Part shown: positions 1 through 14,753 of the stretch, piece after piece
Layout: the number at the start of each line of letters is the position of its first letter
Numbering within the stretch: the first letter of the stretch is position 1
IMG/VR virus record: IMGVR_UViG_2687453454_000003
Coordinates: 1 to 64,000 of that record
Source: a virus
Lineage: Duplodnaviria > Heunggongvirae > Uroviricota > Caudoviricetes
Strand: one strand, 5' to 3'
Length of the DNA stretch: 64,000 bases
The notes under the pieces: generated by a model
Told to the model about the DNA's origin: nothing
What the model saw: the letters and a program-made list of their open reading frames with translations, nothing else
Database searches by the model: none
Position numbers and translations under genes: made by a program

Positions 1-282
1 CTACCTTTGCCTCTTGCCGCCATTTAACCGGAAGGCGTTACCGTTCGGTTGCGCTATCCCCATGCGGTGTTGCGTTTCGGTAACAGCTTTATGCAGGTCG
101 CCAAATTCCTCAACCTTCACGGGCGGGCGCTTCACGTTCTCCAGACACGTTTCACGGCGGCGCTTTATCCATTCCCGATCATCGTCCTCGGTGCATAACA
201 GCATGACTTCCATCCATCGTGCGGCAGCTCTCCGGTATAGCCCTTTTGACTCCAGCTCTTCAGCTTTCCTGTCCCTTATCAT
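1..282 (-). CDS. small phage regulatory-type protein, C-terminal end cut by window edge
   Basis: ORF track; motif EELESKGLYRRAA.W near its N-terminus is almost identical to a motif in ORF 56321..56815; adjacent to iteron cluster and AlpA gene. Confidence 0.35.
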   Translation of the reverse strand: MIRDRKAEELESKGLYRRAAARWMEVMLLCTEDDDREWIKRRRETCLENVKRPPVKVEEFGDLHKAVTETQHRMGIAQPNGNAFRLNGGKRQR

Positions 283-317
283 TTCTGCCTCTCAGATTAT
301 ATAGATAAGCAAAAAGG

Positions 318-440
318 TGTTGGTTCAGTTGGTTCAGTTGGTTCAATTTGTAAAGAGTATTGTTTTTAAAAGAATTATTCGCAAAAAGTGAACCAACTCA
401 CCCCATTTTTGAACCAACAAAAAGAGGCCGTGAACCAACA
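318..440. repeat. iteron cluster A: 3 tandem TTGGTTCAG (320-346) plus 3 spaced GAACCAAC (about 389-439)
   Basis: Direct reading of sequence; inverted copy of cluster at 7826..7942. Confidence 0.6.
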
Positions 441-513
441 CGCCGTTTAAAAACCGCTAATTATGAGGGACATCCACCAGCACAGGGCTTGTCTAGTGCT
501 GGTTAGGTGCTGC

Positions 514-732
514 TCACCGCGCACGGAGCGGCGCTGGTTTGCTCCAGCGATATGCGGGGCTGGTCATCATTTCGCGGTACCGCCTGGCTATTACAGGGCC
601 CTCTGCCAGCTGGCGCCTTAATTCCCGCAGTTCTGCCGGGCTGAGCTGGTGGCCGCCATGCTCCAGCTTGGCAATGGTCAGCAGCTCGATTTCTCGTGGT
701 GTCATGGATTCCCCTCTGATGGTGATCGGCAT
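514..732 (-). CDS. hypothetical protein (72 aa)
   Basis: ORF track only; no recognisable motif. Confidence 0.3.
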   Translation of the reverse strand: MPITIRGESMTPREIELLTIAKLEHGGHQLSPAELRELRRQLAEGPVIARRYREMMTSPAYRWSKPAPLRAR

Positions 733-956
733 TATATTGCTAGCCAGGGTGATTCTTCACTGGCCAGAGCCGTTGTGCGTGAAGTCTATGCGTGAACTCC
801 ATATGCTATGTGTTAAGTTACAGCTCAAAATGTCCTGTTCCGGTGGTAACTTTTTGGTAAACAGCGTTTTGGTGGATACCAACATGGATACCTCGCTTTT
901 GGATACCACCCAAAGCCAGATTGTCACTATGCTTAATCTAAAGCAGAGGAGCCTCT

Positions 957-1142
957 ATGCGCCTTATCAAATTAAGCGAAGTCATGCTCAGAACGGGCTT
1001 CAAGAAAACGGCAATCTACTCATGGGTTAAGACGGGCACGTTTCCACAGCCAGTTAAAATTGGTAGATCAGCTAGATGGTCGCTTGAGGAGGTTGAAGCT
1101 TGGATCCAGAACAAACTTGATTCGCGGGCTGGCAACCAATGA
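957..1142 (+). CDS. alpA: AlpA-family phage transcriptional regulator / excisionase-like DNA-binding protein
   Basis: 61 aa; LSEV..RTG.....Y..V..G.FP.PVKIG.R...W...EV..WI pattern typical of AlpA/Vis HTH proteins; paralog of 15197..15394. Confidence 0.7.
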   Translation: MRLIKLSEVMLRTGFKKTAIYSWVKTGTFPQPVKIGRSARWSLEEVEAWIQNKLDSRAGNQ

Positions 1143-1775
1143 TTAGCTTTAATATCGAGTGGTGGATAGTCCATGGACAAGCTGATGGGCGCACTCGACG
1201 AAAACGATGCGCCAGGCGGACTGTGTCGCTCATAAACCGGGAGTTGGCCAGAGGACTTAGTTGTCCTTTGCAATTCTGCAGGTTCGCACGTGAAAGTAGC
1301 CAAAACCCTGCGAACCTGAGTGCAAACCTGCAACTGCGAACCACTGAGGTGGCCTCTCATAGCTGGTGGTCATACTGGATATTAATCAGGCCTGCCACAA
1401 CCATAACAATCCATAACAGACGCATCGCACCAACAATTACTAATAGGTCCGCTCGCAACACTAATTTTGACTAAGCCTGAACGCAATGCTCAGAAAGAAC
1501 GAAGAATGGAATGAATCGTACCATCATGTTGCTCCATGATTTTTACGTTCAAGACAGTTGCTTAATCTCGCCTCGCAATTCAGCCCCCTTGCCGTTATCG
1601 AGAAGTCTTTCTCCTTACGGTTAATGCTATCGGTCTTCATATTACCAGCAGCATACGCCATCCGATTATTTCGATGCTACGCGCGCGTACTTGTCGCAAA
1701 ATACCAGGCAAAGGCCAGATTCAGAACGTCGTGATAACCACCAGTACAACATGAGAGGTCATGTAACGCGATTTA

Positions 1776-2156
1776 TCACACCAGATACATGTGATTGGTG
1801 TACCCGCATAAAACATCGTCATAGCGCGTCCTGTGCGCATATACGCCGATAATCAACACATCACCACCACTCTGTCTCATGTAGAGAACAGTTTTATGGT
1901 ATCCCCCCGCCATCGTGTGCATACTGGTCGGACGTAGTTGCAAAATTTTTTGCAACTGATACCCCTCGCGCGCGTACTTGTCTCGAAATTGGTGTTTTGC
2001 TGTGGCAGTGATATCAGAAAAATCTTCCTGTTTCACATAAAGCGGATATGCGCGTACTGTAACGGCCCCATCAACGGGGATCGGATTTGAAATCCCGACC
2101 CAAGCTATGTACCAAATGCCATGTCTTGGATATATGATGATTGCCATTCTAAACAA
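1776..2156 (-). CDS. hypothetical protein
   Basis: ORF track only; overlaps the start of the opposing membrane-protein ORF. Confidence 0.25.
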   Translation of the reverse strand: MFRMAIIIYPRHGIWYIAWVGISNPIPVDGAVTVRAYPLYVKQEDFSDITATAKHQFRDKYAREGYQLQKILQLRPTSMHTMAGGYHKTVLYMRQSGGDVLIIGVYAHRTRYDDVLCGYTNHMYLV

Positions 2157-2175
2157 AGCTAAAGGGAGGGTTGGT

Positions 2176-2526
2176 GTGAATGCTCAGGCTGTCATCATGG
2201 TTTTCCTTGGTCTGATTGTCGCAAAACTATATCCAGACTGGTGGAAAGGGGCATTAGCAACTGTCGCCATCTATTTGCTTTTATCCGTCGTTAAGCGATC
2301 GTTCGTTAAGACCGTAAATCAAGCAAAACGTTTCTCATTTAAGAATTTAATAAACTATATTACTGGGCTTATTTTTTGCCTTTCAATTTTGATCGCCTCA
2401 GCTTTTTTGCCCGTATCAATAGCTAATTTTTTTGGCGCACCATATGAGGTAGGTTATCTATTCTCTGTTTTTTGTCTTGTTCTTTCCCTTCTTTACCTAT
2501 GGATGAGAGCAAAGAACAAAAATTAG
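2176..2526 (+). CDS. small multi-pass membrane protein
   Basis: GTG start at 2176 preceded by AAGGGAGGG Shine-Dalgarno; hydrophobic stretches consistent with 3-4 TM helices; lies directly after the gp16-like gene. Confidence 0.4.
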   Translation: MNAQAVIMVFLGLIVAKLYPDWWKGALATVAIYLLLSVVKRSFVKTVNQAKRFSFKNLINYITGLIFCLSILIASAFLPVSIANFFGAPYEVGYLFSVFCLVLSLLYLWMRAKNKN

Positions 2527-2544
2527 CCATCCATGGCTAACCAG

Positions 2545-4649
2545 TTATTGAGCTTCTTTTTGTGATGCCTGTGCGACTCTGGTGAGCGATTGTGTGACCG
2601 TACTGATCGCTCTGTCATATGCTGTGCTACCTTTTGGCGTATTTGCCAGACGTAACAAGGCATTTCGTATAACAGGGCTTTCGTATGCCTTCGCTGCTCC
2701 GCCTACGGCACCAGCAGCAGGAACAACAAACGCAGCCGTTTTTAGCATCCCCGCTAATACTGCTGCGTTTATGATGCCACCACCAACTAACAATCCATAA
2801 AGCTGCTGACCATTTAAGTTTTGAACGTTCGCTTTTGCCGCGTGTCTTGTATCGTTGAGGTATTTAATAACGCCGTCCAGTTCCTTTCCATGTACGCCTT
2901 TAAAGAAAGTTGCTGATTGCTTCCTGTTCCGGTGTAACGCATTAATAAACTTCTCAACACTGATATTTCCAGACGGATCAGTCGCCTTATCTACAGCATT
3001 CTGAACTATGGCTGCTCGTGCGTTTTGCCTACCATTGTCATCCAGAAGCCTGTAAAGCTGAGAACGTTCTGATGGGCTTTGGCTAAAAACGAGTTTTGTT
3101 ACATCCTCAGGCGTGGCCTTGCCGCTGGCTATTGCCTTTTGAACGCGCGTTCTTCCCATCATGTCATTGAATTTAGACCATGAGCGATCAACCCTTGCCA
3201 TATTAATGGCTTCGTCTGCTCCAAGATTTTTGGCTACGGCTTTTTTCATATCCGCCGTATATGCCTTGTAGATAATATCGCTGGCTTTCTGGAGCGTATC
3301 TTTATCAACAGTGTCAGATGACGCCATAAATCGCTTTCGAAGATCGGTTCTGTTTTCCCTCGCCAGACGCAGGTCATTTGGTCCGCTGGTGATATCGTCT
3401 TTAAATTGCTGCAAGACTTTTACCGCGGCTCTATCCTGAGATTTGCCCGGGCGGCTTAACACGGCAATCTGATTGTCGATAGCTTTTACCGTGTTTGAGA
3501 GATCGACAGGGGTATCCCCCATAGCGTCAATTATGCGGTTATATCGCTTTCCTGCTGCCTCAATGAATTTTTGTTGCCCTTTAGTCGCAGATTCATAAAG
3601 CTGTTTATCAGAAATGCCACCCAGACCATCGCTAAATGTTCTGACTAAATTTTCTCGTGCTTGTTGTTGATTCAGCCGATTCTTACCGGTTCCAAAAAAA
3701 GAACTCTTTCGCCTAATGTCTGAGCCTGACTCTGCATAAAGGTTTTATCTTTCAGCATGTCACTGGTCATTAACGGCAGATTTCTTTCCGATGCAAAGTC
3801 GACAGCAGCCTTTGCTTCAGGCGACATATCACCACGAACAGCCCTCGAAACCGCACTCGCTGTATTTTCCAGCCCCTTACCAATACCACCAATGCCAGCA
3901 GAAATTACCGTTTGTAACGGATCAATATCTTCTCCACCAGCAAGGCTGGTGGCTCCCTGTAGTGCTAAATCTGTAGCTGCTGATTTTCCTATGGCACCAA
4001 GCACCGTTCCAGCCCTGCCCACTGGTGTAAACGCCAACGCATTAGCAAGAAACGAAGTCAGGTCTTGCGGTGATAAACCCGGCTTGTTCAGGGCATAATC
4101 ACCTGATGGCAGAGAAACGATAGTATTCCCCTTCTCATCCTGCCTTAATGTCGCCCCCATTCCCTGAAGAATCTTTTCCTGAGACGCGTCAGAGCCGAAA
4201 AGTTGAGACCATCCAGCCTTTAGGGCATCCATGCTTAGTGAGTTCAATTCTGGGGCAGAGGTGACATTTTGCAGTCTCTCCATCTCTGGAGTCATTCGGC
4301 TTTCGCCTGTTATAGCATCGCGCATCGCAGCCCCAAGACTGGCTCCCTGTTCTGCTGAACGCTCAAGCCCCTCTCTTTGCTGAGTAGCTAACTTTGCATA
4401 CCCTGACGCAAGAGAATTATCAGATGATGTATGTTGAATATTTTGAGTTGCTGATTGGGATCGGTCTATTTCATTCGTTGATGGTAGTGGATAGGCAGCA
4501 TAAAAAGCCTGCTTAGCCTGCTCTACACTTTCTCCGGCTTGCGGGGCAACGACTTCATTGAAGTATTGCTCCTGAGCCTGCGCTTTTTGTTCTGGTGCTA
4601 ACGCCTGATACTGTGGAGAGGCGATAACATCTTTCCATGCTTTAGCCAT
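2545..4649 (-). pseudogene. P22 gp16-like ejection protein, reading frame broken at an A7/T7 run (3694-3700)
   Basis: Two 325-aa ORFs (2545..3522, 3672..4649); the downstream frame stays open and protein-like upstream through the run (..RRKSSFFGTGKNRLNQQQ..), so one indel joins them into about 700 aa. Confidence 0.5.
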
Positions 4650-6070
4650 TAATCACCCCATAGTGAAGAAAAGTTACTGCTGGCTGCTGGCTGTGATACC
4701 TGCTCAGATTGCGGCAATGTCTGCGACGAAGAAGAAGTTCCTCTGTCAACTGCTGAAATAACCCGCAAAGCATCATAAGCTCGACCAGAAGCAGCTTTCA
4801 GCGAATTGAACTGGTTTTCCATCTTCCGGCGCTTGGTATCAATGGTTTTTGTGGAGTCGCCAGGCTGAGGGAAATACATTTGATAATATTTTGACATTTC
4901 AGCAGGTGCGATAGCTGCCCCTGTTTCCTGACGGAGTATTGCCATTATTGCGTCATTAGCATTAACAACGTATTGCTGCTCTGTTGGGCTGAGCGTTAAG
5001 TTAGCCAGCGTCCCATTACCCAAAGCATTATTAATGATCGCCACTCGCTGTGGGCTAAGCTGGTCTTTCAGTGTATCTATTGAATCAAGAGCATCCCTAA
5101 CCCTGTATGCAAATCCAGCAGCTTTTTTAGCCCCTTCTGGCGACTTTTCCATGATCTTTTGGGCTGTTGGCAAAGCTATTGGACGAAACCCATCTCCAGA
5201 TATTGGCTGGTTTAGTTTTCCCTGCTCTTCACTTCCGTCTGTGTAGTATTTTGTGACAGTGCCATCATCGTTTTCTCTAACACTCATTAATTTTTTGGCG
5301 TTTGTATTAATTCCAGCCGCTGCCGCAAATGCCGCCGCCCCCTCTGGATCCGCCTTTAACATTTGAGCGTACTGATTGTAATTCTGCATTGCTGCTGTTG
5401 GTGCATATGCTGACGTTAACGCATTTGCTCGGCTAATATCCTGCCCTCTCGCCTGAAGTGCTTCGCCAGCCTGATTGCTGCGGATTGTCTCTGCCAACTT
5501 GCCACGCTCAATATCCCGACCTTCCATTTGATCTTTGATATCGAAATACTTCTCATGACCGAGAGAAAACAGTGCCATACTACCAGCAAGCCGCTGGAAT
5601 CCCTGTGGATCATTAACATGCATTTCGGCAACAGACTCAGGAGAAATTCCCAAGCGACGCATTTCATCTTCGTTATCTGCTATGAATTTTCCAAATGCCC
5701 CAGTTCCGAGCGAAGATGCGATTTGAGCACTAGTCGCAAGATGACCAATAGAATTTCTCTGGTCGTCATCAATAAAGCCCATCCCTTTCTGAACGCTTTC
5801 AAATTCTTCTGGATACTCAGAAATAAGACTGCGCATTTTGTTTCTGTCTCCAGACTCAAAAGCCCCGGCATATGCTTTCTGAAACTCTGCTTTACGCTGT
5901 TGTTGACGTGCCTGCTGATTAATCTCAGCAACGCCTCTTAGCCCCTGTAGCGCCATTAAACCTACGTTTGGGTGCTGCTGATACTGCACAGGCTGAGGAA
6001 CGGAAGAACGAGGAGCATTATCATTTTGCGGTGCCATGCTAGGCAGCCCGCCAAGTTGCCATGTCGCCAT
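4649..6070 (-). CDS. P22 gp20-like ejection protein
   Basis: 473 aa (P22 gp20 is about 471 aa) and position between gp7-like and gp16-like genes; assignment from recollection. Confidence 0.5.
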   Translation of the reverse strand: MATWQLGGLPSMAPQNDNAPRSSVPQPVQYQQHPNVGLMALQGLRGVAEINQQARQQQRKAEFQKAYAGAFESGDRNKMRSLISEYPEEFESVQKGMGFIDDDQRNSIGHLATSAQIASSLGTGAFGKFIADNEDEMRRLGISPESVAEMHVNDPQGFQRLAGSMALFSLGHEKYFDIKDQMEGRDIERGKLAETIRSNQAGEALQARGQDISRANALTSAYAPTAAMQNYNQYAQMLKADPEGAAAFAAAAGINTNAKKLMSVRENDDGTVTKYYTDGSEEQGKLNQPISGDGFRPIALPTAQKIMEKSPEGAKKAAGFAYRVRDALDSIDTLKDQLSPQRVAIINNALGNGTLANLTLSPTEQQYVVNANDAIMAILRQETGAAIAPAEMSKYYQMYFPQPGDSTKTIDTKRRKMENQFNSLKAASGRAYDALRVISAVDRGTSSSSQTLPQSEQVSQPAASSNFSSLWGD

Positions 6071-6747
6071 TAGAATCCAAGCCCCCCAACAAGACCAATA
6101 AGCCCACCACCAATAGCCCCGGCGACATTACCTATACCCGGAACAACGGAACCAAGTTGCGCACCCGCTAAAGCGCCTGATGCCGCCCCACCAATACCAC
6201 GCGCAAGACTGGATGGCTGCTGCGCCTGACCTGCACGAATAGCGCCAAGCCCCTGCAAGAGTTGCCCGGTATTATTGGCGTAGTTTTGCCCTGCTGTTGC
6301 CTGCCCTGATGCCGCATTCATCCCGACATTTAGCAGGTTTCCATAATTTTGCATTTGCCCACTGAGCCAATTGTTATAAAGCATGGGCGCAATGGAAGAT
6401 AACTGGTTACTGGTAGCTGTTGAGCCAAGCCCCCCGGTAGCTTCTGCTGAGACAAGGTTCTGATAACGGGCCTGATCTGCCTGTGTTTTATATAAACCAG
6501 AACCAAAGAAATCATTCGCGGCTTTATTCTGCCCTTCCAGAGTCATCAGTCCTTGCAGTTGTTGTAAAGCAGGCAATCCGACTTCTGCATACGGCTTGAG
6601 ATTATTCATCACCGTATTCCACTGCTCGCGCTGCAAATCAATTGCCTGCTGCTGGGCCTTCGCCTGAGCTTTAGAGGCACCACCATCACCGCCTTTTTCG
6701 TATACGGCACGATTGAGATGTTTATGAGCTATATGGGTAATTAACAT
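6070..6747 (-). CDS. P22 gp7-like ejection protein
   Basis: 225 aa (P22 gp7 is about 229 aa); Gln/Ala/Gly-rich with glycine-rich hydrophobic C-terminus; gene order 14-7-20-16 as in P22. Confidence 0.5.
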   Translation of the reverse strand: MLITHIAHKHLNRAVYEKGGDGGASKAQAKAQQQAIDLQREQWNTVMNNLKPYAEVGLPALQQLQGLMTLEGQNKAANDFFGSGLYKTQADQARYQNLVSAEATGGLGSTATSNQLSSIAPMLYNNWLSGQMQNYGNLLNVGMNAASGQATAGQNYANNTGQLLQGLGAIRAGQAQQPSSLARGIGGAASGALAGAQLGSVVPGIGNVAGAIGGGLIGLVGGLGF

Positions 6748-7202
6748 TCGCTGAATTCCTTATATTGTTGCCGAGTTAACTGATAAAGCGTTACGCCGAC
6801 GGGTTTACCACATCTGATATAAGCATCATCAAGGTGACCAACACGGGTAGCGCCAAGCAAACGGATAATTGCCCGTCCATATTTCGTGGTGTCAGGAACC
6901 ATAGTGATGCTGTTAAGGAATGGTGAGTTTTCGAGAAGCCATTTGCAGAATAATCGATGCCCTTGCAGTGCATATTCACCACGGAATCCGGGGTCGTACA
7001 CCGCATGGCATTCAACAACGCTATGCCAGAAGTTACGCACTTCATGAACGCCAGCCAGCACTAATCCTTCGTAGATGCCGAGATATACCGCATCAGGCTT
7101 GATGTAGTACGTGTGCCCCGGCTCAACAATATTTTCGGTATTGCCTGGCTCGTTAAGAAAGGCCTGTAATCGCACAGGGTTATCAATAAATTTTAGTTCC
7201 AT
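6741..7202 (-). CDS. P22 gp14-like protein
   Basis: 153 aa ORF heading the ejection cassette; assignment by position. Confidence 0.4.
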   Translation of the reverse strand: MELKFIDNPVRLQAFLNEPGNTENIVEPGHTYYIKPDAVYLGIYEGLVLAGVHEVRNFWHSVVECHAVYDPGFRGEYALQGHRLFCKWLLENSPFLNSITMVPDTTKYGRAIIRLLGATRVGHLDDAYIRCGKPVGVTLYQLTRQQYKEFSEC

Positions 7203-7218
7203 GCGATGCCATCCATTT

Positions 7219-7380
7219 TCACATACAGCCTGCCAGCGCCTTATCTATTAACCCTCGTGCAATTTCATGCAGAGTTGGCGCTACTCCAATTCCTGATTTT
7301 TTACGCTGCTCTTCCTGAATTTTCTTTATCGCTTCCATTTGCTTCTCACTTATCAATACTGGCTTTACTGAAATAGCCAT
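7219..7380 (-). CDS. small protein (53 aa), possible small regulator
   Basis: Translates to MAISVKPVLISEKQMEAIKKIQEEQRKKSGIGVAPTLHEIARGLIDKALAGCM; AAGGGGG Shine-Dalgarno; LexA-box-like site just upstream; below the 60-aa track cutoff. Confidence 0.35.
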   Translation of the reverse strand: MAISVKPVLISEKQMEAIKKIQEEQRKKSGIGVAPTLHEIARGLIDKALAGCM

Positions 7381-7395
7381 AACGCCCCCTTATAA

Positions 7396-7411
7396 CTGTA
7401 TAAAACAACAG
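7396..7411. promoter_or_regulatory. LexA (SOS) box-like palindrome CTGT-ATAAAACA-ACAG
   Basis: Matches CTGT-N8-ACAG with AT-rich spacer, 16 nt upstream of the ATG at 7380. Confidence 0.4.
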
Positions 7412-7825
7412 TTATTATAGTTTCACAAATCGCAATATTCATCATCGTAATTGCAGAATATGAAACAAATAGCACAAAAAAATGCCACCGCTCAGTAGCT
7501 GGTGGCGTCGTTCTGTGTGTCAGGTTTTGACAGGTTTTTTATGGACTCTAAAAACTATATTTATGGTGTCGCATTACTCTTCACGGCAGGCGCTTTTCAG
7601 TTCTGCCCTTGCTTCTGGCTCCATTGGTAATTTGATTCGCGATCAGCTATGCGGATGGTTTGCTGAACAGGCATAACAACTTCTCAGAGGCTGTTTTTTG
7701 AACTACGAAAATTTCGTAGTGCTCACTTTCAAAAACGTCACGCCCTTGTACACAGGATTTTACGAAAGTCTCGTAAAACACTCTCTGATGCCAGCCAGGT
7801 GTTGTGCGCATCAATTCAGTCACAT

Positions 7826-7942
7826 TGTGTTGGTTCAAAATACCGTGTTGTTGGTTCAGTGTTGGTTCAATAAAAAGAATAAAATCCTTATAAAACAATA
7901 CCCTTTACAAATTGAACCAACTGAACCAACTGAACCAACACC
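7826..7942. repeat. iteron cluster B (putative origin): 3 spaced TTGGTTCA (7829-7870) plus 3 tandem GAACCAAC (7914-7940)
   Basis: Direct reading; immediately downstream of the primase gene, as P4 ori is downstream of alpha. Confidence 0.6.
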
Positions 7943-7964
7943 TTTTCTACGCACATGAAGAAGC

Positions 7965-10724
7965 TCATTCTTCAGATGAGTTATAATCTCCTGGCTGGTA
8001 ATTGAGTACATAAACGTTTATTTGTCGTCCCTGAATACGTGGTGATTTTCTTTGGTATCCACGACCGCTGTTTGGTGGGGTTAGCATCCCGGCTTTTTTC
8101 AACACTTCAGCAAACTGTTTTGCGTTGAAACCACATGCGATCTCCTTTTCAAATGTGGCCGGGAATGTGTAGAAAATCATTGGGCTTTCGTCATGTTCTC
8201 CACGCTGACGGTATCCGGCTAAATCTTTGATGGGCAAATCTGCCGGGCTGTATGGAAATGGTGCAAAACGGCTAAGCCCATAGGCATTAAGAAATGCCTC
8301 CGTTTGTTCAATAATCTGCTGATGTTCTTTGTTACCTGTGCCGAACTCGCGCAACCATGCGTTATAGCTGTGCTGTATCGCATCACGGCATGTCTGAGCA
8401 TCCCAGCCTGTTACAACCTCGCCTAACAGCAATGCGGCCTCCAGAATGGCAAATCGCGCGGCTACACGGTGAACCTGCTCACCATAATCGGATGGGATCA
8501 GGTTTCTCCATCTGCTTTCGCAATCACGAACGGTTTTAATAGCCTGTTGCTGGTGGTCTGCCAGCCATTTAATCCACTCACGCCCGGCTGCGCCGTGGTG
8601 ATGCTGGTAAGCGTCTTTCAGTGCGTCTGCGTGCTGTTTTCCGTTCTGGTAATCGTGAAAGCGTACTGCTTTACTCAACGGAATATTCAGCAGTCGCACC
8701 AGTTGCCCGGCTTTGGTTTTTCGCCCGGAAGTAGCGATAAATGTTTCTAAATCCATTTCTCCGGTGCTGATTGCCACTGTACGCCAGCGTTTTAGATCCC
8801 GGTTTCCACCATCTTTAGCGCCTTGCAGTTTCCCTACACCGTTAAATAACGCATAGGCAGACTGTGAAACGCTGACAGGATCAGCGCCCTGACCAACTTC
8901 ATCAAGCGGCATTAGTCCGTCATTGTGGGCGGCGGCCTCATTTGCCAGCCCCAGCGCGGTTCCGTACCACGTCAGCCGCAGTAAATCAGGGTTGCCGTAT
9001 AAGCTGCTCGCCACGTTTGCCGTGGTGGTCTTACCTGCGCTCGACTGCTCATAGAAATGAATGCCGAACCCGTCAGCGCCCACCAGCCCAATCAATGGCG
9101 CTGCCAGTGCTGCGCCGATCCCGGTCATCATTGAATAGTTACCAAAGGCCAGACGCGCCACGTTATCACGCCAGCTTTTCGCGCTCCCTGAGACGGTATA
9201 TCCGGCTGCGGCTGAGCTTCTCCCGCTGAACAGCACAGGATTTTCAGGTGTTCCGATGATTTCCCCATCAGGCATGATGTACGCTCCGCATTGCCATCCA
9301 GTGGCATGAGCAACACGCCACAATTCACGAGAGCCACTGCGTTGTAGCCAGTCTGCCAGTATTGCTCTGAGGCTGCTTTTGGTCGTGACATTTACCCCAC
9401 CAGCTTTAAGTGTGCGCCATCCTTCACGTTCACCAATATCAGCCAGTGGAATGGCAGCGGTTGTCGGCGTTTCAGAACCAAACGACAGCCAGCGAAGAAT
9501 GAGATACTGGTCTTTATCGTCTCTGCCAGTACCGATAACGCTTAACGGAGAACATAACCAGCTTTCGTTATTGATGATTTCTCCACTCTGGCTGTCAGCT
9601 CTCGGAGATACCCAATAAATACCATCCTCGCGGCTTTCTATTCTTGGTTTCAGTGGGTCGGTATCCATAACCTTAAAATCGCTTCCCTCAATGGTCTGTG
9701 GCTCCTGTTTCACGCCATTACCCTGTGGTTGGTACATTGACTTATTGAACGCTTCTGTGGCGCATTTAATGCCGTGTTTTTGGTGGTAATCATTCCAGTC
9801 TGCTTTGTGATCTGTCGGGGGTAATGCCACCCATCCAGAAACAGATAAAGCTGCTTTTTCTGCTGCTATTCTCCCCGTGTTTTGTCTTCCTTCGCTGTGG
9901 TCGTTATCCGCAGCAATGATGATTTGTGCTGAAGGAAATTTATCCCGCAGTACCTGGGCGACATATAACAGGTTCCCGGCATCAATCGCCGCCACTGTCA
10001 GCGCCTCTGGACGAATTAAATGGGCAGATAATGCCGTTGCCAGCCCTTCTGCGATTAAGATGCTCTGTGTTGTTTCTGGCGCGTTTATGGCGTGATATGC
10101 CCCCCGCTTTGCTGAACCTGTCAGGAGTCTTTTTTCACCATGTGATGTAATAGTCTGTGCTGCTGTGACTGCGCCGGATTTATCCACCAGCGCCAGCAAC
10201 AGAGATCCATCGGGCAACACGGGGAATGTAAAATCACCTACCCCTTTCGCAACCAGATAATCAGATTTGCCGTTTACAGCCTTTCTGCGCATGTCATCAA
10301 ACTGACGGGAAAACGTATCCCGTCTTTGTTGTTCGTCCTTCTCTGCCCTTTTCAGGCGCTCCTGTTCGCGTCGCTGGCGCTCGGTTTCCAGTTGTTCCCG
10401 TTTCTGGCTGGTGGCTTCTGGTGTTTCCGTTGTCCGGTAATCAATACCCAGAACATCAGCGGCAAGAAGCGCCGCCTCTGTTGTGTCGCAGTTATTTACG
10501 CGTTTAATTAAATCCAGCCCATCACCAGCGCCGCACTGATTACAGATGAAGCTACCGCGCCCGTTGTCATCGAACCGGAATCGATCTTTGCCCCCACATG
10601 CAGGGCAGGGAGCATGACGGCGCGGAGAGTCAGGGACATTTATGTTCAGGCAGCCCAGCACATGAGGCCAGTTGTTTTCAGACGCACTGATAACCTGACG
10701 GATAAGATCAATGTTTCGCATCAC
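7965..10724 (-). CDS. P4 alpha-like primase-helicase
   Basis: 919 aa; N-terminal zinc-binding CPACGG..FRFDD...FICNQCG; Walker A-like SSAGKTT and Walker B-like LMPLDEVGQ. Confidence 0.85.
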   Translation of the reverse strand: MMRNIDLIRQVISASENNWPHVLGCLNINVPDSPRRHAPCPACGGKDRFRFDDNGRGSFICNQCGAGDGLDLIKRVNNCDTTEAALLAADVLGIDYRTTETPEATSQKREQLETERQRREQERLKRAEKDEQQRRDTFSRQFDDMRRKAVNGKSDYLVAKGVGDFTFPVLPDGSLLLALVDKSGAVTAAQTITSHGEKRLLTGSAKRGAYHAINAPETTQSILIAEGLATALSAHLIRPEALTVAAIDAGNLLYVAQVLRDKFPSAQIIIAADNDHSEGRQNTGRIAAEKAALSVSGWVALPPTDHKADWNDYHQKHGIKCATEAFNKSMYQPQGNGVKQEPQTIEGSDFKVMDTDPLKPRIESREDGIYWVSPRADSQSGEIINNESWLCSPLSVIGTGRDDKDQYLILRWLSFGSETPTTAAIPLADIGEREGWRTLKAGGVNVTTKSSLRAILADWLQRSGSRELWRVAHATGWQCGAYIMPDGEIIGTPENPVLFSGRSSAAAGYTVSGSAKSWRDNVARLAFGNYSMMTGIGAALAAPLIGLVGADGFGIHFYEQSSAGKTTTANVASSLYGNPDLLRLTWYGTALGLANEAAAHNDGLMPLDEVGQGADPVSVSQSAYALFNGVGKLQGAKDGGNRDLKRWRTVAISTGEMDLETFIATSGRKTKAGQLVRLLNIPLSKAVRFHDYQNGKQHADALKDAYQHHHGAAGREWIKWLADHQQQAIKTVRDCESRWRNLIPSDYGEQVHRVAARFAILEAALLLGEVVTGWDAQTCRDAIQHSYNAWLREFGTGNKEHQQIIEQTEAFLNAYGLSRFAPFPYSPADLPIKDLAGYRQRGEHDESPMIFYTFPATFEKEIACGFNAKQFAEVLKKAGMLTPPNSGRGYQRKSPRIQGRQINVYVLNYQPGDYNSSEE

Positions 10725-11079
10725 CGTACCCCATGTGGTCTATAGCGTTTGCGATATGGCTAACCAGCATCTGCCACTTGGTTATTCCGTAATCAGTCAG
10801 CATGCCATCATTGTTTAGCCACATATCAAATTCAGCGGTTGTCGCAAGTTTCCACTTATCGCCGTGGACAGTCCTCATTGCTGGGTACATGAATGCGCAA
10901 ATCAGATCACAAACATCTGACGGCTTCAGAGATGTAGTAATGGTGCGTCCCTCTGGCGTCTGAATTGCCATTTTCTCTTCACCAGTAGAATGAAGGTTAT
11001 GAATCCACACAGCACCAGCAATCTTTGCCACCTGCTCTCCGATTGCGGAGCTAAGCGCCATTTCTGCATTTTCACGCAT
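10708..11079 (-). CDS. hypothetical protein
   Basis: ORF track; part of a tightly packed minus-strand operon upstream of the primase. Confidence 0.4.
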   Translation of the reverse strand: MRENAEMALSSAIGEQVAKIAGAVWIHNLHSTGEEKMAIQTPEGRTITTSLKPSDVCDLICAFMYPAMRTVHGDKWKLATTAEFDMWLNNDGMLTDYGITKWQMLVSHIANAIDHMGYGDAKH

Positions 11080-11413
11080 GAGAACCTCCCGCTACAGTTG
11101 CGCCCATGTCATTAACCATGCTTTGCCATATCTCACGCCCGACGTCAGTCAATCCGTCCTTAGTGACGCAACGCTCAAGAAGCTCGATCCCCACGGTTTC
11201 CCACTGCGGGTAGAACACTTTCATGGCTGCCAGTGTGTAGCTATCGATCAGGCTGCGAACGCCTTTTACTCCATTAACGATTTCCACACGTACGGCCTCG
11301 CCGTCCGCATCAACCATGAAATAGTCCCCGCCGCTGGTGGAGGTAATGTGGTTATACAGTGCCGACGCATACTTATTTGCCAGCGCATTCAGTCGGAAAT
11401 TTTTAGTAATCAT
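11072..11413 (-). CDS. hypothetical protein
   Basis: ORF track; operon context. Confidence 0.4.
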   Translation of the reverse strand: MITKNFRLNALANKYASALYNHITSTSGGDYFMVDADGEAVRVEIVNGVKGVRSLIDSYTLAAMKVFYPQWETVGIELLERCVTKDGLTDVGREIWQSMVNDMGATVAGGSHA

Positions 11414-11423
11414 GGCTCCATCC

Positions 11424-12026
11424 TCAGTGCGTCACTGGTTCCGCTGGCATGCCGTTTTCATTCAGTTCAGCTATAAAGCTGTTGTGAAGTTCAGCAAGCG
11501 TTTCACGACCAAATGGAGTCAGTGCTCCTTGTTCCACATCCATCATGGCTCTGTAGAAAATGATGGCGCGTTCTGTGCCAGACTCGATGCCAAAACGTTC
11601 TATCATCGCTCCCTCAATGTTGTTTGCCATAGCGAGGCGCTCTGCTACTGGATACAGCGGCATGGCGACGATGCCGTTGGAATAAACAGCCACTTCGGAA
11701 GGATTGCCAGTATCATCAATGATGCTGACAGTGCCGTTTTCCTCTCTCATTTCCAGCATGAATACTGTTGCGATCAGCCATCTCCACATAATGACGTTAT
11801 GCTGTGATGTGTAATCGAAATATCCCTGGTTGCCGCCATCGGCAATAGCGAGATGTATTGACATACCTTCATCTGGTTTATCGTCATAATCCCCGGCATC
11901 CAGACGATTTACGGCATCAATATATGAGACGGCCTCAACGCGTTCTGTCATGCCATCGTTGCTGCGGTACATGATGTTTACGCCGTCAGGCGTTGCTTCT
12001 GTATGGAAAGTTAAGAAATTATTCAT
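11424..12026 (-). CDS. hypothetical protein (start trimmed to internal Met)
   Basis: ORF 11424..12131; internal start MNNFLTFHTE avoids overlap with the upstream gene. Confidence 0.35.
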   Translation of the reverse strand: MNNFLTFHTEATPDGVNIMYRSNDGMTERVEAVSYIDAVNRLDAGDYDDKPDEGMSIHLAIADGGNQGYFDYTSQHNVIMWRWLIATVFMLEMREENGTVSIIDDTGNPSEVAVYSNGIVAMPLYPVAERLAMANNIEGAMIERFGIESGTERAIIFYRAMMDVEQGALTPFGRETLAELHNSFIAELNENGMPAEPVTH

Positions 12027-12240
12027 GTTTCGCCTCGCCTGAATGATTCTGTAACTCATATTTGCCCAACAATTCGTCCGCTTCCTGAATAGCTTCTGGT
12101 ACGCCATTGAGCAGTGACATAACCGCGCCAATCATTAACTTGTCTCTGTTGCTGGGGCTGGCCCCTTCAAGCCAGAACCCTAAAACAGTCTGAACCTGTT
12201 CGATGCGACATTGCGCTTCAATGAGCTGGATGTTGGTCAT
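12019..12240 (-). CDS. hypothetical small protein
   Basis: ORF track. Confidence 0.35.
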   Translation of the reverse strand: MTNIQLIEAQCRIEQVQTVLGFWLEGASPSNRDKLMIGAVMSLLNGVPEAIQEADELLGKYELQNHSGEAKHE

Positions 12241-12500
12241 TTCGCACTCTCCACATCGATTAAACCGATATCTATCAGGGAGGTAACTTTTTGTAGCCAG
12301 CTATTGATTACTGTCGCCTGTTCCCCGCCCACCGAGGGAACAATCTCATTCATCACATGAACCAGACCTGTGCGCGCTCTGGTAAGCCGTTCAGTCGCGC
12401 AATCTGCGGGAGTGAATGTGTCTGGATATGGCTCTTCACGCCCCAGCAATGATTCAATTTCCAGCTCACACGGATGACGATAAATTAAGTTGATATTCAT
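12237..12500 (-). CDS. hypothetical small protein
   Basis: ORF track; start/stop overlaps with neighbours. Confidence 0.4.
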   Translation of the reverse strand: MNINLIYRHPCELEIESLLGREEPYPDTFTPADCATERLTRARTGLVHVMNEIVPSVGGEQATVINSWLQKVTSLIDIGLIDVESAK

Positions 12501-12691
12501 TTTTCACCCCCAAGAATTACCAGCTCGGCACGGGCATCGTTAACCAAAGATGAGCACGCTTTAATCGCATCCACGACATCAGTAGCGTCCATTTCTTCAG
12601 CCGAAAGACTGACAGCAACCAGGACAGCCGCTGCTTGCTCGATTAATTGAAGTGCGGACGTAAGGCGAGGGGTATTAATTGAGTTATTCAT
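12497..12691 (-). CDS. hypothetical small protein
   Basis: ORF 12497..12748 trimmed to internal Met. Confidence 0.35.
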   Translation of the reverse strand: MNNSINTPRLTSALQLIEQAAAVLVAVSLSAEEMDATDVVDAIKACSSLVNDARAELVILGGEK

Positions 12692-12902
12692 TGGTTGCCC
12701 CCGTTTTTCCTGGCATTTCGCCACCTTCCAGCAGGAAATGAACGTCACGAACGGCGAGATCCAATATCGCGAGTAACGCCTTCAGTCTTTCGTCTCGTGA
12801 GGGAGAGTTGCTCACCAGAATGTCGTTAATCACTTCTGTCAGTGTGATGATCTGGCTTGTGCGTTCGAGGGGATCCATATGCACATCGTAGGTTTTAATC
12901 AT
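12684..12902 (-). CDS. hypothetical small protein (72 aa)
   Basis: C-terminal part of the 355-aa six-frame ORF; ATG at 12902 overlaps the stop of the upstream 64-aa gene. Confidence 0.35.
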   Translation of the reverse strand: MIKTYDVHMDPLERTSQIITLTEVINDILVSNSPSRDERLKALLAILDLAVRDVHFLLEGGEMPGKTGATNE

Positions 12903-13089
12903 GTGCCACCTCCATGCGGATACGACCAGCAAAAAAGCAGATGTGATCGCGCACCAGAGAACGGCGAGCATCGCGTTCAGACTCGGCAGCAATATGATGA
13001 ATTTTGGCGGTAATTGTCGGGCAATCGCGGCGAACTGCGGCGATAATCCAGATAAATTGCGGTTTTTGGGTAGGGGTAGTAGCCAGCAT
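12895..13089 (-). CDS. hypothetical small protein (64 aa)
   Basis: ATG at 13089 preceded by AGGAGG (13097-13102) with 7-nt spacing. Confidence 0.4.
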   Translation of the reverse strand: MLATTPTQKPQFIWIIAAVRRDCPTITAKIHHIAAESERDARRSLVRDHICFFAGRIRMEVAHD

Positions 13090-13291
13090 GTGGCAGCCTC
13101 CTTGTACTGGGAGTTCTTCCCACCACCGGAGCTGCGAAACTCGCTGGTGGTGGACTGAACAGAGTTCGCAGTACCGGCGTACAAGGAAACCGGCCAGCCT
13201 TTCGGCTGCCCTGTCCAGCCCACCATAATTTTGCAAGCGACGCGGATTATAACCGCATCACTGAAAAAAGTGTGAGTCTGGCTAACGGCAC

Positions 13292-13313
13292 AAAAAAAGA
13301 CGCTCGGCGCGTC
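13292..13313 (-). terminator. intrinsic terminator-like hairpin GACGC-GCCGA-GCGTC followed by T7
   Basis: Minus-strand stem-loop followed by seven U; sits in the leader upstream of the small-gene operon. Confidence 0.4.
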
Positions 13314-13744
13314 ATGTGTCGCCTCGTACATTTCCGGGCTGCGAAACCCGGCACCCGTTTTATGAGGTGCCTTATAACCATAAACCGTGTTGCCGCATAA
13401 CGGCAAGCTCTTTTTTATGGACTCCGAAAACTCACTATTGGAAGCACCAGATGCACAATACATCGCGCTCATTTCGTTAACGTCGCGCGTGTGGACGAAG
13501 GTTTTTGTGGAGTCACTACGCGAGCAGAGAAAGCCATCTACGACCAGAAATTCTCTGGCGCAGCCGCCGACCTTCTCAACGCTAACACCATCGACCGTAA
13601 TTTCTGACATAGTTAAGGCATCCGCTCCCACCACCAGAAAATGATAAACTTTGCTTGTATCTGCTGTATTAATGCCAGACTTTGCTGTCATATTGCTGGA
13701 TTTTGGCGACATACCAGCCAGTGAAAATATCTTCTTCTGGACGG

Positions 13745-13927
13745 TTAGCATTTGTTAACCTCCGCGAACTCCTTCATGAAGCGCGCCAGCGGTTGTACGC
13801 ATGGCGATTGATACCCGTCGCGATAAAACGTCACTCGGTTGTGAGACACGCTTTCGACAGTAACGAGTGCTCCGTGGGCATCCTTGTAGCGTTTTTGAGG
13901 TTGTGGTGTTCCTGTCGGCTTAAACAT
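13745..13927 (-). CDS. hypothetical small protein
   Basis: ORF 13745..14014 trimmed to Met at 13927, which overlaps the stop of the antirepressor gene. Confidence 0.3.
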   Translation of the reverse strand: MFKPTGTPQPQKRYKDAHGALVTVESVSHNRVTFYRDGYQSPCVQPLARFMKEFAEVNKC

Positions 13928-14753
13928 GGACCACCTCCAGACGCTTAGCGAGCCAGCGTTGCGACAGGCGGGTGAGTTCTCCTTTGCGCTGCTCATATTC
14001 CATGCCCATATCAATTAACGTGATATTGGTGCTTTCGAGATATGAGAGGTGCTCAAGTTGTTCTGCGTTCATATGGTCGCGAGGTTCGCCAGAATAGCCA
14101 TTTATCCGCGCCCACTGCTTAGCAGTTAGCCCACCAAGAACGATACGAGAAATCATATTGCTCTCGTTTGTGTAGTGGTGTTGCTGCGTCGTTTTCCCCT
14201 GCTCGGCACGGGCCATATTCAGCGCATCGCACATTGGCTTAAAGTTGTTTGCGGCACTGATACGGGCTTTTAGCTGGCGACGATAGCGGGCGGCGATTTC
14301 AGGAACGCTACGCTGTAATTCTTCCTCGCACTGGATGAAATAACGGCGGATAGCGCGACCCTGATCATTGCGTTCGATCATTGCCAGTTCTTTCGCCATT
14401 CCGACACTTAACAGATAGTCTTTGCCGGGTCTGCCAGACTGCTTAATCTTTCTGTAAGCCGCGCCATTCGGGCTTTTCCCCAAATTTGGGGAAATAGTTT
14501 TATGGACTGAGTAATCGTGCCCAATGGTGAAGTCATATTCAGAGATGCGATCAGTGATCCATGTAGAGAAGTCTTTTCCCACGCCCAACGCTTTGTGTAA
14601 CGCTTTTGCGCTAACAATATTGGTTTCACGCCCACCGATATGACCAGGAATAACCGGGACAATTGCGGCAAATTCATTACCGTTAATTGTGCTCAGAGAG
14701 GCGTTCAGATGAGGGGCGGCCTCAGAAATTAATCTGCTTTTTTCGATGTTCAT
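13920..14753 (-). CDS. phage antirepressor (Rha/AntA-type N-terminal domain)
   Basis: 277 aa; KALHKALGVGKDFSTWITDRISEYDFTIGHDY matches the DNA-binding domain pattern of Rha/Ant antirepressors. Confidence 0.6.
   Translation of the reverse strand: MNIEKSRLISEAAPHLNASLSTINGNEFAAIVPVIPGHIGGRETNIVSAKALHKALGVGKDFSTWITDRISEYDFTIGHDYSVHKTISPNLGKSPNGAAYRKIKQSGRPGKDYLLSVGMAKELAMIERNDQGRAIRRYFIQCEEELQRSVPEIAARYRRQLKARISAANNFKPMCDALNMARAEQGKTTQQHHYTNESNMISRIVLGGLTAKQWARINGYSGEPRDHMNAEQLEHLSYLESTNITLIDMGMEYEQRKGELTRLSQRWLAKRLEVVHV

Follow-up and report, generated by a model that had tools for sequence, protein, structure and literature searches.

The PICI EcCIMP1 of Escherichia coli MP1 is neither excised nor transduced without its P22-like helper, phage Kapi1 (Pick, Stadel & Raivio, ISME J 2025; PMC11773190). 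In that element, the PICI cycle is switched on by alpA as master activator, which responds to the helper, not to DNA damage itself, and a PerC-family regulator represses LEE (PMC11773190). Transduction of EcCIMP1 by Kapi1 is very low (approximately 5e3 per ml), and the Kapi1 titer after induction is not reduced by the island (PMC11773190). The authors named several of its genes 'DNA transfer' or hypothetical and proposed a packaging role for them; the P22 ejection set was not recognized as such in their paper (PMC11773190). The PLEs of Vibrio cholerae (Mathur, Boyd et al., Nature 2026; PMC12987554) encode a tape measure protein, a tail assembly chaperone, and a baseplate hub of their own, which share 20%, 20%, and 41% identity, respectively, with those of phage ICP1. 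These proteins are physically built into chimeric tails and replace those of the helper in satellite virions (PMC12987554).

This study analyzed a 64,000-nucleotide stretch of DNA (the window) that contains most of an E. coli phage satellite of approximately 19.7 kb, a PICI of the published EcCIMP1 type integrated at thrW. The thrW site named by the first-pass annotation was correct, because window positions 17996–18041 (minus strand) are the 3' 46 nt of thrW. The int-proximal end of the island is marked there by the att core GATAATAGGA at 18003–18012, which agrees with the core published for EcCIMP1 (PMC11773190); the other end is marked by a second copy of the core, which lies 1,708 bp before the window begins. 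An unrelated lambda-like prophage begins past the island's att site, at approximately 22.3 kb. Profile searches identified a P4-type tyrosine integrase gene (16616–17830, minus strand), followed downstream by alpA (15197–15394, minus strand; PF05930, 8.9e-20) and a PICI primase/replicase gene with zinc ribbon, Toprim, and DUF927 domains (7965–10724, minus strand; Pfam and PHROG), the homologues of which, at 50–81% identity, occur in islands of many Enterobacterales. A second, short AlpA-family gene, alpA_1 of EcCIMP1 (984–1142, plus strand; PF05930, 2.3e-9; PMC11773190), and a PerC-family regulator gene (1–282, minus strand; PF06069, 3.7e-30) lie at the other side. The two iteron clusters that had been reported were both recovered. 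Repeats of GTTGGTTCA / TGAACCAAC lie directly downstream of the primase gene at 7825–7946, and an inverted copy lies at 312–444, where a 65-nt arm (312–376) is 92% complementary to 7882–7946. The PICI origin is the region 3' of the replication gene (PMC6092414), and the cluster at 7825–7946 is the probable replication origin.

The layout of int, alpA, primase/replicase, and then an iteron origin is that of PICIs, and the island lies within their size range of approximately 10–20 kb. The element had been called P4/PICI-like. The PICI part of this label stands, and a P4-like satellite was rejected because the Psu, Sid, Delta, and Epsilon families were absent from all island ORFs in Pfam and PHROG scans. 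The same scans bore out, within the island, the description of a satellite without terminase, portal, coat, or tail genes: they revealed no capsid, terminase, tail, or lysis gene and no TerS, Rpp, or capsid-size gene, and the only virion-related genes were those for ejection proteins.

The island is not new. Window positions 1–2101, 5910–15388, and 16640–18041, corresponding to approximately three quarters of the island, share 98.4–99% DNA identity with EcCIMP1. The two elements have in common the thrW site between proA and the yagU side, the att core, both iteron clusters, and the gene order int, alpA, antA, ash/C4 region, primase, iterons, small gene, gp14, gp7, gp20, gp16, alpA_1, PerC, and PRiA4. 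They differ at 2101–5910, where the window carries another allele block comprising the C-terminal approximately 420 aa of gp20, the whole of gp16, and the gene in the position of P22 sieA. The gp16 homologue has 701 aa without an SLT domain in the window, whereas that of EcCIMP1 has 906 aa with an N-terminal SLT domain, and a protein with four transmembrane segments takes the place of a 232-aa lipoprotein in the sieA slot. Two further features of the window copy are a DUF6387 gene close to int and the gp16 frameshift.

The segment 2545–7380 is one minus-strand operon in which a gene for a 53-aa protein is followed by homologues of P22 gp14, gp7, gp20, and gp16. All four genes had been proposed to be P22 ejection genes, and this assignment was confirmed: the PF11039, PF25688, and PF16928 matches all exceed the curated cut-offs, gp16 is covered by phrog_770, and BLASTP against P22 gp14, gp7, gp20, and gp16 gave significant similarity for the ejection homologues. 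The gp14 homologue (6741–7202; 153 aa; DUF2824; PF11039, 1.5e-61; phrog_651, 1e-66) is 23% identical to P22 gp14 (E 2e-8) and 84% identical to Kapi1 gp55. The gp7 homologue (6070–6747; 225 aa; PF25688 P22_gp7, 1.9e-72; phrog_598) shares 56% identity with P22 gp7 and 57% with its Kapi1 homologue. The gp20 homologue (4649–6070) has 473 aa, compared with 471 aa in P22, and matches PF16928 Inj_translocase over residues 34–213 (3.9e-58) and phrog_917 over its full length (2.5e-112); its identity of 38% to P22 gp20 and 34% to Kapi1 gp20 applies to the N-terminal approximately 210–240 aa only. The gp16 homologue (2545–4649; 701 aa when intact) is, in repaired form, 30% identical to P22 gp16 over 478 aa (E 5e-53), and its nearest phage homologue reaches a mere 66% identity. 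The order and sizes thus resemble those of P22 as had been stated, except that the gp16 frame is not intact. A 1-nt deletion near 3701, mapped against strain XJW9B263, splits gp16 into two ORFs (3672–4649 and 2545–3522), which match positions 3–267 and 325–667 of phrog_770, the N- and C-terminal halves.

The first-pass annotation counted four genes between 2545 and 7380, and a fifth, the 53-aa leader gene (7219–7380, minus strand), also lies there. In 31 loci, a homologue immediately precedes the cargo, and the gene is conserved across the island family irrespective of the cargo behind it, with a dN/dS of 0.03–0.15. No match was found among Pfam or PHROG families. The AF2 model (pLDDT 83) has an extended N-terminus followed by two helices, and the top fold matches, none of them significant, were ribbon-helix-helix proteins (the PutA DNA-binding domain and VapB); the leader protein is possibly a ribbon-helix-helix DNA-binding protein. 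Reading the control region (7381–7499, minus strand) revealed an upstream terminator (7484–7499), two TTTCA-N5-YGCAA sites (7451–7465 and 7421–7435), a -10 TATAAT (7414–7419), and, between the -10 and the start codon, a LexA-box-like palindrome, CTGT-N8-ACAG (7396–7411), which occurs 3 times in the 64 kb compared with 0.7 expected. This architecture is kept upstream of the small gene in the 31 loci, which span many genera. The exact palindrome spacing is kept in four of them (L005, L034, L054, and L059), and most relatives have CTGT-N8-CAGG, one base shorter. At the other end, a terminator-like hairpin (2521–2542) lies 3 nt past the gp16 stop codon, between two convergent genes. The cassette is therefore a self-contained operon comprising a terminator, a conserved promoter, the small gene, gp14-gp7-gp20-gp16, and a terminator.

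What follows this promoter varies among islands. Among 31 related islands found in other Enterobacterales, 26 have a genome-delivery protein behind this small gene and promoter. According to PHROG and Pfam names assigned to one representative per protein cluster, with ORFs called mechanically, the cargo comprises tape measure proteins (11 islands), tape-measure-like/transglycosylase proteins (6), podovirus internal-virion sets including a T7_gp14-family protein (5), P22-type cassettes (2), a baseplate hub (1), and a mosaic (1). Behind the cargo, a TerS-like HTH protein is encoded separately in some relatives. A shared small gene and promoter heading varied genome-delivery cargo across islands seems to be the new aspect of this locus.

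Convergent with gp16 and 18 nt from its stop codon lies an ORF (2137–2526, plus strand) for a 129-aa protein with four hydrophobic segments. A small multi-pass membrane protein in this position fits the slot of P22 sieA, which in P22 follows 14-7-20-16 convergently. The protein showed no similarity to P22 SieA (BLASTP E 0.93) and lacks the FnRYPnEAnnFNK motif of SieA types A–C; no Pfam, PHROG, or PADLOC family matched it, and no phage homologue was found. In the UMNK88 island, the protein encoded in the sieA slot is a true SieA homologue that contains the RYPGEA motif and is 30% identical over 108 aa, and across the islands this slot always holds a gene for a membrane, secreted, or lipoprotein.

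The first-pass annotation offered two explanations for the cassette, one of which was a P22-like prophage that had decayed around its ejection genes. A decayed prophage was rejected, because terminase, portal, scaffold, coat, gp4/10/26, and tailspike genes are absent from the island and its flanks; a true P22-like prophage at argW (L004) has the expected neighbor genes. The spread of the cassette also contradicts this explanation. In strain CP53, the integrated element as a whole forms a clean 17-kb island from thrW to the paoD side, and the backbone and cassette recur at yicC/dinD, a second site, where the integrase is a different one; across these two sites and two integrases, at least four allele combinations exist. 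Islands swap alleles of gp20, gp16, and the sieA-slot gene, and the minimal cassette is gp20 with gp16, since gp14 and gp7 are missing from many islands. The exact cassette proteins were found on 600 to more than 1000 contigs, and the primase and small-gene segment in 358 of 5,426 complete E. coli genomes. When E. coli and Leclercia islands are compared, all four genes show strong purifying selection (dN/dS of 0.067–0.084, at a dS of 1–2).

A functionless cassette left by a P22-like prophage at thrW or by past recombination with a helper is one reading to be weighed. P22 itself integrates at thrW, the 14-7-20-16 set with a gene in the sieA position resembles a single contiguous piece of a P22-like genome, and gp16 is frameshifted in the window and interrupted by IS66 in strain EC26. 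The frameshift allele, however, was found in none of the 310 complete E. coli genomes with the segment, whereas the intact 701-aa sequence occurs exactly on 603 contigs; the deletion may therefore have arisen privately in this copy or be an artifact of sequencing. For the family, inertness is already contradicted by a dN/dS of approximately 0.07 between copies from different genera, by cassette genes intact in hundreds of genomes, by the operon's own terminators and family-wide conserved promoter, by its movement with the island to another site and integrase, by flanks without other P22 genes, and by the 66% identity of the closest phage gp16, and we consider this reading highly improbable.

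The EcCIMP1 authors' proposal, in which the DUF2824 and 'DNA transfer' proteins steer helper packaging or head morphogenesis toward the island, draws on the location of the cassette in the slot where other PICIs hold packaging or interference genes (PMC11773190), on the poorly defined function of gp14/DUF2824 (labelled 'head morphogenesis'), and on the lack of a TerS, Rpp, or capsid-size gene in the island scans. We regard it as improbable: in P22, the role of gp7, gp20, and gp16 is established, since they are ejected and build the DNA conduit and do not belong to the packaging motor (PMC10461980; PMC8402733); many islands lack gp14 and gp7 altogether; related islands hold in this slot tape measure or hub proteins, which have no packaging role; and the TerS-like HTH protein of some relatives is a separate gene. 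A defensive or decoy function is somewhat less doubtful, although still unlikely. In this reading, P22-like phages would be blocked or poisoned in the resident cell by the ejection proteins, by the sieA-slot protein, or by both, either through disturbed assembly of the incoming phage's trans-envelope conduit or through dominant-negative subunits in helper progeny. EcCIMP1 adds superinfection immunity to Kapi1, and no known defense system was found in it (PMC11773190); the PICI region downstream of pri is a recognized immunity hotspot (PMC11364771); and the SieA homologue adjoining gp16 in the UMNK88 island, together with the constant membrane, secreted, or lipoprotein gene in this slot, fits the same idea. 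The unchanged Kapi1 titer and the failure of EcCIMP1 to protect non-lysogens (PMC11773190) argue against a simple dominant-negative or decoy effect, PADLOC models gave no match, and the flanking terminators and apparently activator-dependent promoter of the operon do not suggest constitutive expression. Moreover, the sieA-slot gene alone could confer immunity, which would leave the ejection genes unexplained.

The other explanation of the first-pass annotation, in which helper particles are loaded with ejection proteins made by the satellite, is the better supported of the two and the best inference from comparative evidence and the Vibrio PLE precedent. The cassette would be the cargo operon of an EcCIMP1-like PICI that parasitizes P22-like podoviruses, a reading to which we assign a probability of about 0.5. 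Helper induction would switch on the operon, with AlpA as a possible activator; in these E. coli islands, relief of the LexA-like operator may contribute, although the shorter spacing in most relatives and the response of EcCIMP1 alpA to the helper count against this. Satellite gp20 and gp16, with gp14 and gp7 where present, would then enter helper procapsids, where they would replace or join the helper's own, very different ejection proteins, and island-carrying particles would build a satellite-specified trans-envelope DNA conduit. Unless the gp16 frameshift is a sequencing error, the present copy would need to borrow the helper's gp16. P22 with ejection proteins only 21–26% identical to its own still assembles and injects, which makes loading in trans plausible. 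Between EcCIMP1 and its helper Kapi1, gp20 shares 26% and gp16 24% identity, the same pattern of divergence as between the PLEs and ICP1. The low transduction of EcCIMP1 by Kapi1 may mean that this pair is poorly matched or that the system works differently, and the unreduced Kapi1 titer indicates that competition with helper proteins, if it occurs, does no great harm. The broken gp16 of the window and its interruption in EC26 also count against the proposal, as loss of this gene is tolerated in some lineages. If the proposal is true, the likely pay-off would be independence from the helper's ejection-protein alleles, making diverse P22-like helpers usable. Entry into lysogens with SieA-type exclusion, which targets exactly gp16 and gp20, might also be allowed; P22 mutations that escape SieA exclusion map to gp20 and gp16 (PMC10461980).

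Compared with known systems, the cassette shares with P22 the order, orientation, and similar sizes of 14-7-20-16, significant family membership of all four proteins, and a small convergent gene directly behind gene 16. Unlike in P22, the primase, origin, and small island gene lie upstream; the upstream needle gene (26) and the downstream immI region and tailspike are all absent, protein identity is low (23–56%), and the gene in the sieA position encodes no SieA homologue. With P4, the island shares a P4-type integrase adjoining a tRNA gene, a large primase-helicase, and an AlpA-family regulator, but the Psu, Sid, Delta, and Epsilon homologues of P4 are missing and the island primase is of the Toprim/DUF927 type. 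The Gram-negative PICIs EcCICFT073 and EcCIEDL933 have the same int-alpA-primase-ori layout with an accessory or packaging region downstream of pri; however, they use cos-type lambdoid helpers and Rpp proteins that redirect TerS, whereas no Rpp or capsid gene was found in the present island, and EcCIMP1-type islands form a separate clade. The PLEs belong to an unrelated satellite family with a myovirus helper, in contrast to the podovirus here; they supply tail parts, whereas the island would supply capsid-internal ejection proteins, and no Rta-like inhibitor was identified for it. Similar to the PLEs, nevertheless, the island is a satellite with highly diverged homologues of the helper's genome-delivery parts, and among its relatives this cargo slot holds tape measure proteins and, in one case, a hub.

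The region at window positions 2545-7380 carries five closely packed genes, all on the minus strand. The first gene to be transcribed (7219-7380) encodes a small protein of 53 aa that belongs to no known family. It is followed by genes encoding a 153-aa gp14 homologue (6741-7202; PF11039/DUF2824, 1.5e-61; phrog_651, the family of P22 gene 14), a 225-aa gp7 homologue (6070-6747; PF25688 "P22_gp7," 1.9e-72), and a 473-aa gp20 homologue (4649-6070; PF16928, the P22 injectosome translocase gp20, 3.9e-58), and then by two ORFs of 325 aa each (3672-4649 and 2545-3522) that match the N- and C-terminal halves of phrog_770 ("DNA transfer protein," gp16). Alignment with strain XJW9B263 revealed that a 1-nt deletion near position 3701 divides a single gp16 gene into these two ORFs. 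The first-pass annotation had equated the four genes with P22 14-7-20-16 in order and size, and this was confirmed, except that gp16 is broken in this copy. Comparison with the P22 proteins themselves was significant for gp14 (23% identity, E 2e-8) and for the repaired 701-aa gp16 (30% identity across 478 residues, E 5e-53).

A 61-nt probe spanning the deletion revealed the undeleted gp16 allele in all 310 complete E. coli genomes that were matched, and the intact 701-aa protein was present with its exact sequence on 603 contigs; the frameshift is therefore either private to this copy or an error. The closest gp16 among 50,697 phage records was 66% identical. In EC26, the strain whose genome is closest to the window, the gp16 homologue (L087, 7239-9575) is interrupted by an IS66-family element. 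Counting the frameshift, gp16 thus has two independent lesions among closely related copies.

Upstream of the cassette, in the sense of transcription, lie a Toprim/DUF927 primase gene (7965-10724), a run of small genes, an Ash/AntA region, alpA (15197-15394), a DUF6387 gene, and a P4-type integrase gene (16616-17830); the 3' 46 nt of thrW are at 17996-18041. The 10-nt att core published for EcCIMP1, a PICI of E. coli MP1, occurs at 18003-18012, and a second copy lies 1,708 bp beyond the left end of the window, so the island is approximately 19.7 kb long and the window begins inside it. The GTTGGTTCA iterons follow the primase gene at 7825-7946, and an inverted copy at 312-444 adjoins a PerC-family gene, in agreement with the earlier description of two iteron clusters flanking the cassette. 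The description of the element as having no terminase, portal, coat, or tail genes also holds for the island, within which lysis genes are likewise absent; scans of the island ORFs found no TerS, Rpp, or capsid-size genes either. A P4-like classification of the island was rejected. The segment 283-2560 yielded no meaningful match when compared with phages, and a phage origin for it was not upheld.

The iterons lie on a 65-nt inverted repeat (312-376 and 7882-7946; 92% complementary), the copies of which enclose a 7.5-kb block that contains the small gene and the cargo and extends to alpA_1. PerC comes directly after the primase in relatives belonging to other genera, which suggests that the E. 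coli islands have undergone an insertion or rearrangement of this block. The Ash/AntA region also houses a C4 antisense RNA (13143-13230, 81 bits) and an isrK RNA (13293-13370, 69 bits), together with a weak a1/b1 target motif (13331-13383; 22.5 bits, below gathering). All three are on the minus strand within a 355-aa ORF, named "ash family protein" in RefSeq, just downstream of antA. The arrangement looks like the immI-type antisense control of the antirepressor in P1/P7, and the long ash ORF is therefore likely to be an over-call; in the MP1 annotation, an Icd-like gene and an ash pseudogene stand at this position. The interval between the integrase and DUF6387 genes contains an Rfam int-alpA RNA motif (16488-16555, minus strand; 46.7 bits, above gathering).

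Outside the att site, a 1083-aa ORF (18465-21716, minus strand; 32-39% GC) is followed by an integrase remnant and then by an unrelated lambda/HK97-like prophage (22349 to >64000). The ORF, which has no Pfam match, may be a defense-type gene in the remains of another thrW island. The prophage carries tail fiber and tail fiber assembly genes (22349-26217), a second PerC-domain ORF (56321-56815), a CII-like gene (58098-58655), and a CI-like repressor gene (59006-59698), and the EC26 annotation of the matching prophage lists J, tape measure, G/T, a protease-capsid fusion, portal, and TerL. As a siphovirus, it is not an obvious helper for a P22-type cassette. It also encodes a 1060-aa protein (49074-52256, plus strand; 30% GC) with a metallophosphatase domain followed by NACHT/STAND NTPase domains, which from its domain architecture is a putative antiviral-STAND-like protein borne as a moron; a DNA methylase gene (47417-48469) adjoins it.

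EcCIMP1 is a 19,963-bp PICI at thrW that excises and circularizes only in the presence of the P22-like prophage Kapi1, requires both int and alpA, and is transduced by Kapi1 at low frequency (PMC11773190). The same study stated that phage-like structural genes were absent, reported that EcCIMP1 adds superinfection immunity against Kapi1, and found Kapi1-like prophages in only 2 of 21 carriers (PMC11773190). The MP1 locus has the gene order of the window and is 98.4-99% identical to window positions 1-2101, 5910-15388, and 16640-18041, which identifies the window element as an EcCIMP1-like PICI. The two islands differ in the block 2101-5910, with a breakpoint inside the conserved N-terminal part of gp20, a pattern that homologous exchange with P22-like genomes would produce. 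EcCIMP1 and JA0072, by comparison, have a cassette of gp14, gp7, a different gp20 allele, and a gp16 that is 906 aa long and contains an SLT domain.

The first-pass annotation had offered two accounts of the cassette, namely a P22-like prophage that decayed around its ejection genes or a satellite that loads its own ejection proteins into helper particles. The first account was contradicted by the island context, by a second insertion site, and by dN/dS. In strain CP53, a 17-kb island (int, alpA, primase, small gene, gp20, and gp16) makes up the entire insert between thrW and the paoD side, and in MIN6 and UMNK88, the same backbone with a different integrase lies between yicC and dinD and contains the small gene, gp20, and gp16. 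In contrast, where a true P22-like prophage lies at argW, its cassette comes after genes 4, 10, and 26 and the head genes. Between the E. coli (EcCIMP1-type) and Leclercia islands, dN/dS was 0.067 for gp14, 0.072 for gp7, 0.067 for gp20, and 0.084 for gp16, at a dS of 1-2. The primase and small-gene segment was present in approximately 358 of 5,426 complete E. coli genomes, and 180 of these 358 contained at least 80% of the window's cassette. On this genomic evidence, the cassette is a maintained and mobile part of the island.

The operon begins with a terminator (7484-7499), followed by two TTTCA-N5-YGCAA sites (7451-7465 and 7421-7435), a perfect -10 element (7414-7419) that lacks a good -35, and a CTGT-N8-ACAG palindrome (7396-7411) between the -10 element and the start of the small gene; a hairpin terminator (2521-2542) follows gp16. 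The control region upstream of the small gene is kept in 31 loci from many genera, with canonical LexA-type spacing retained in only some of them. A profile search of PDB sequences returned no match for the 53-aa protein, and its best Foldseek matches were RHH proteins, but with E values >1, so its RHH identity remains a guess. Convergent with gp16 and 18 nt from it, ORF 2137-2526 encodes a 129-aa protein with four hydrophobic segments and occupies exactly the position of sieA in P22. Its identification as SieA was rejected because only position and membrane character agree, with no similarity, motif, or phage homologue. In UMNK88, this sieA slot contains a 204-aa SieA homologue (L083, 4945-5559; 30% identity across 108 aa, with the RYPGEA motif) encoded in the PICI and not in a P22-like prophage, whereas every sieA gene examined in the SieA study lay in P22-like prophages. 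Other variants in the slot are a secreted 145-aa protein and a 232-aa lipoprotein.

Relatives of the primase were taken from one genome per species, which yielded 77 loci; cargo was assigned from one annotated representative per protein cluster, with ORFs called mechanically. The int-alpA-antA-ash-primase backbone was widespread across Enterobacterales. The small gene was present in 31 loci, and in 26 of these, a large protein of the genome-delivery class was encoded within a few hundred bases after it. Eleven loci encode tape measure proteins, recognized by PF20155, PF24622, and many TMP PHROGs. Six encode SLT-domain proteins that are TMP-like or of the "tail injection transglycosylase" kind, and five have internal-virion sets of podovirus type, one of which, in Leclercia L041, includes a T7_gp14-family protein. 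L021 has a baseplate hub (PF22759), Escherichia L005 and Leclercia L034 have a P22-type cassette, and the cargo of one locus is a mosaic. A Pectobacterium island encodes a 1,425-aa fusion of the C-terminal part of gp20 with gp16. In Lonsdalea L015, the tape measure gene has the primase/PerC side on one flank and the c9-PRiA4-h119 end genes, which E. coli also has, on the other; it therefore belongs to the island itself rather than to an adjacent prophage.

A conserved 108-aa gene mostly precedes the tape measure genes; it matched no Pfam family or PDB sequence and only a PHROG of unassigned function, and its assignment as a tail-assembly chaperone was rejected. An HTH protein of approximately 200 aa follows the cargo in some relatives (L067, 19343-19957; L058, 19512-20150; L059, 13044-13649). 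Those of L067 and L058 weakly resemble small terminase subunits (phrog_57; E 1e-8 and 6e-7), and that of L059 belongs to the same cluster as that of L067. The protein is a candidate for an island-encoded packaging specificity factor; the E. coli islands showed no counterpart.

P22 gp7, gp20, and gp16 are carried in the capsid, ejected, and build a trans-envelope conduit (PMC10461980; PMC8402733), and P22 ejection proteins can be replaced, for both assembly and injection, by proteins only 21-26% identical to them. Injection is blocked by SieA, and escape mutations lie in gp16 and gp20 (PMC10461980). Between EcCIMP1 and its own helper, identity is 26% for gp20 and 24% for gp16, and the minimal cargo of an island consists of just gp20 and gp16. 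We propose, with a probability of about 0.5, that helper induction would switch on the operon, that its products would be loaded into helper procapsids, and that island-carrying particles would inject through a satellite-specified conduit. The island would thereby become independent of the helper's ejection alleles and might also enter lysogens guarded by injection-blocking exclusion.

Two observations argue against this procapsid loading: the transduction of EcCIMP1 is very low, and gp16 is inactivated both in the window and, by IS66, in EC26. The cassette might instead serve as a defense or a decoy, which we consider unlikely; PADLOC matched no known defense system in the island, in the sieA-slot proteins, or in the adjoining 1083-aa ORF. 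In the EcCIMP1 study, the products of the cassette are labeled "DNA transfer" or hypothetical proteins, and a packaging role is proposed (PMC11773190), which we regard as improbable. That the cassette is simply inert cargo appears highly improbable beside the dN/dS values of its four genes. Returning to procapsid loading, a broader version of it, which we advance tentatively, is that a widespread Enterobacterales PICI clade possesses a dedicated slot (headed by the conserved promoter and a conserved RHH-like gene of approximately 55 aa) that would always be filled with genome-delivery proteins matched to the helper morphotype. These would be P22 ejection proteins, T7-type internal virion proteins, a tape measure with its partner gene, or a baseplate hub, and the resulting chimeric virions would inject in a satellite-specified manner, free of helper alleles, and bypass SieA-type exclusion in recipient lysogens.

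The window element is a new allelic member of the published EcCIMP1-like kind of PICI and not a new class, and the presence of "DNA transfer"-like genes in such islands is already known. Our keyword search of the literature retrieved no description of satellite-encoded podovirus ejection proteins. Nor did we come across, in the searchable literature, an account of a complete P22 ejection set with a gene at the sieA position in an EcCIMP1-like PICI, allele swapping of EcCIMP1-type cassette genes, or tape measure, hub, or T7-type ejection proteins in the slot of the relatives. EcCIMP1-type islands are common, occurring in approximately 6% of complete E. coli genomes and in many other enterobacteria, and they bear virulence regulators (PerC-like), so whatever controls their host range has a bearing on how genes move among gut bacteria. 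Because the MP1, Kapi1, and EcCIMP1::kan system already exists, the loading idea is directly testable. If correct, it would explain what the "DNA transfer" genes do, a question not settled by the EcCIMP1 study, and would make the sieA-slot genes candidates for the unexplained superinfection immunity.

Satellites remodel helper capsids and redirect packaging. The manipulation of DNA-delivery machinery by a satellite was first shown only in 2026, for the tails of the Vibrio cholerae satellite PLE, the tape measure protein, tail chaperone, and hub of which are 20-41% identical to those of the helper and replace them in satellite virions (PMC12987554). That study, which also remarks on tmp genes in PLE-like elements and cf-PICIs (PMC12987554), and a preprint on Mycolicibacterium satellites are the nearest precedents, and our finding offers a directly testable extension of this very recent idea. 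If EcCIMP1-type islands do place satellite-encoded gp20 and gp16 in P22-like capsids, they would parallel the PLE case among podoviruses; if the clade-wide reading is also true, the PLE principle would extend to PICIs, with the first case of capsid-internal podovirus ejection proteins.
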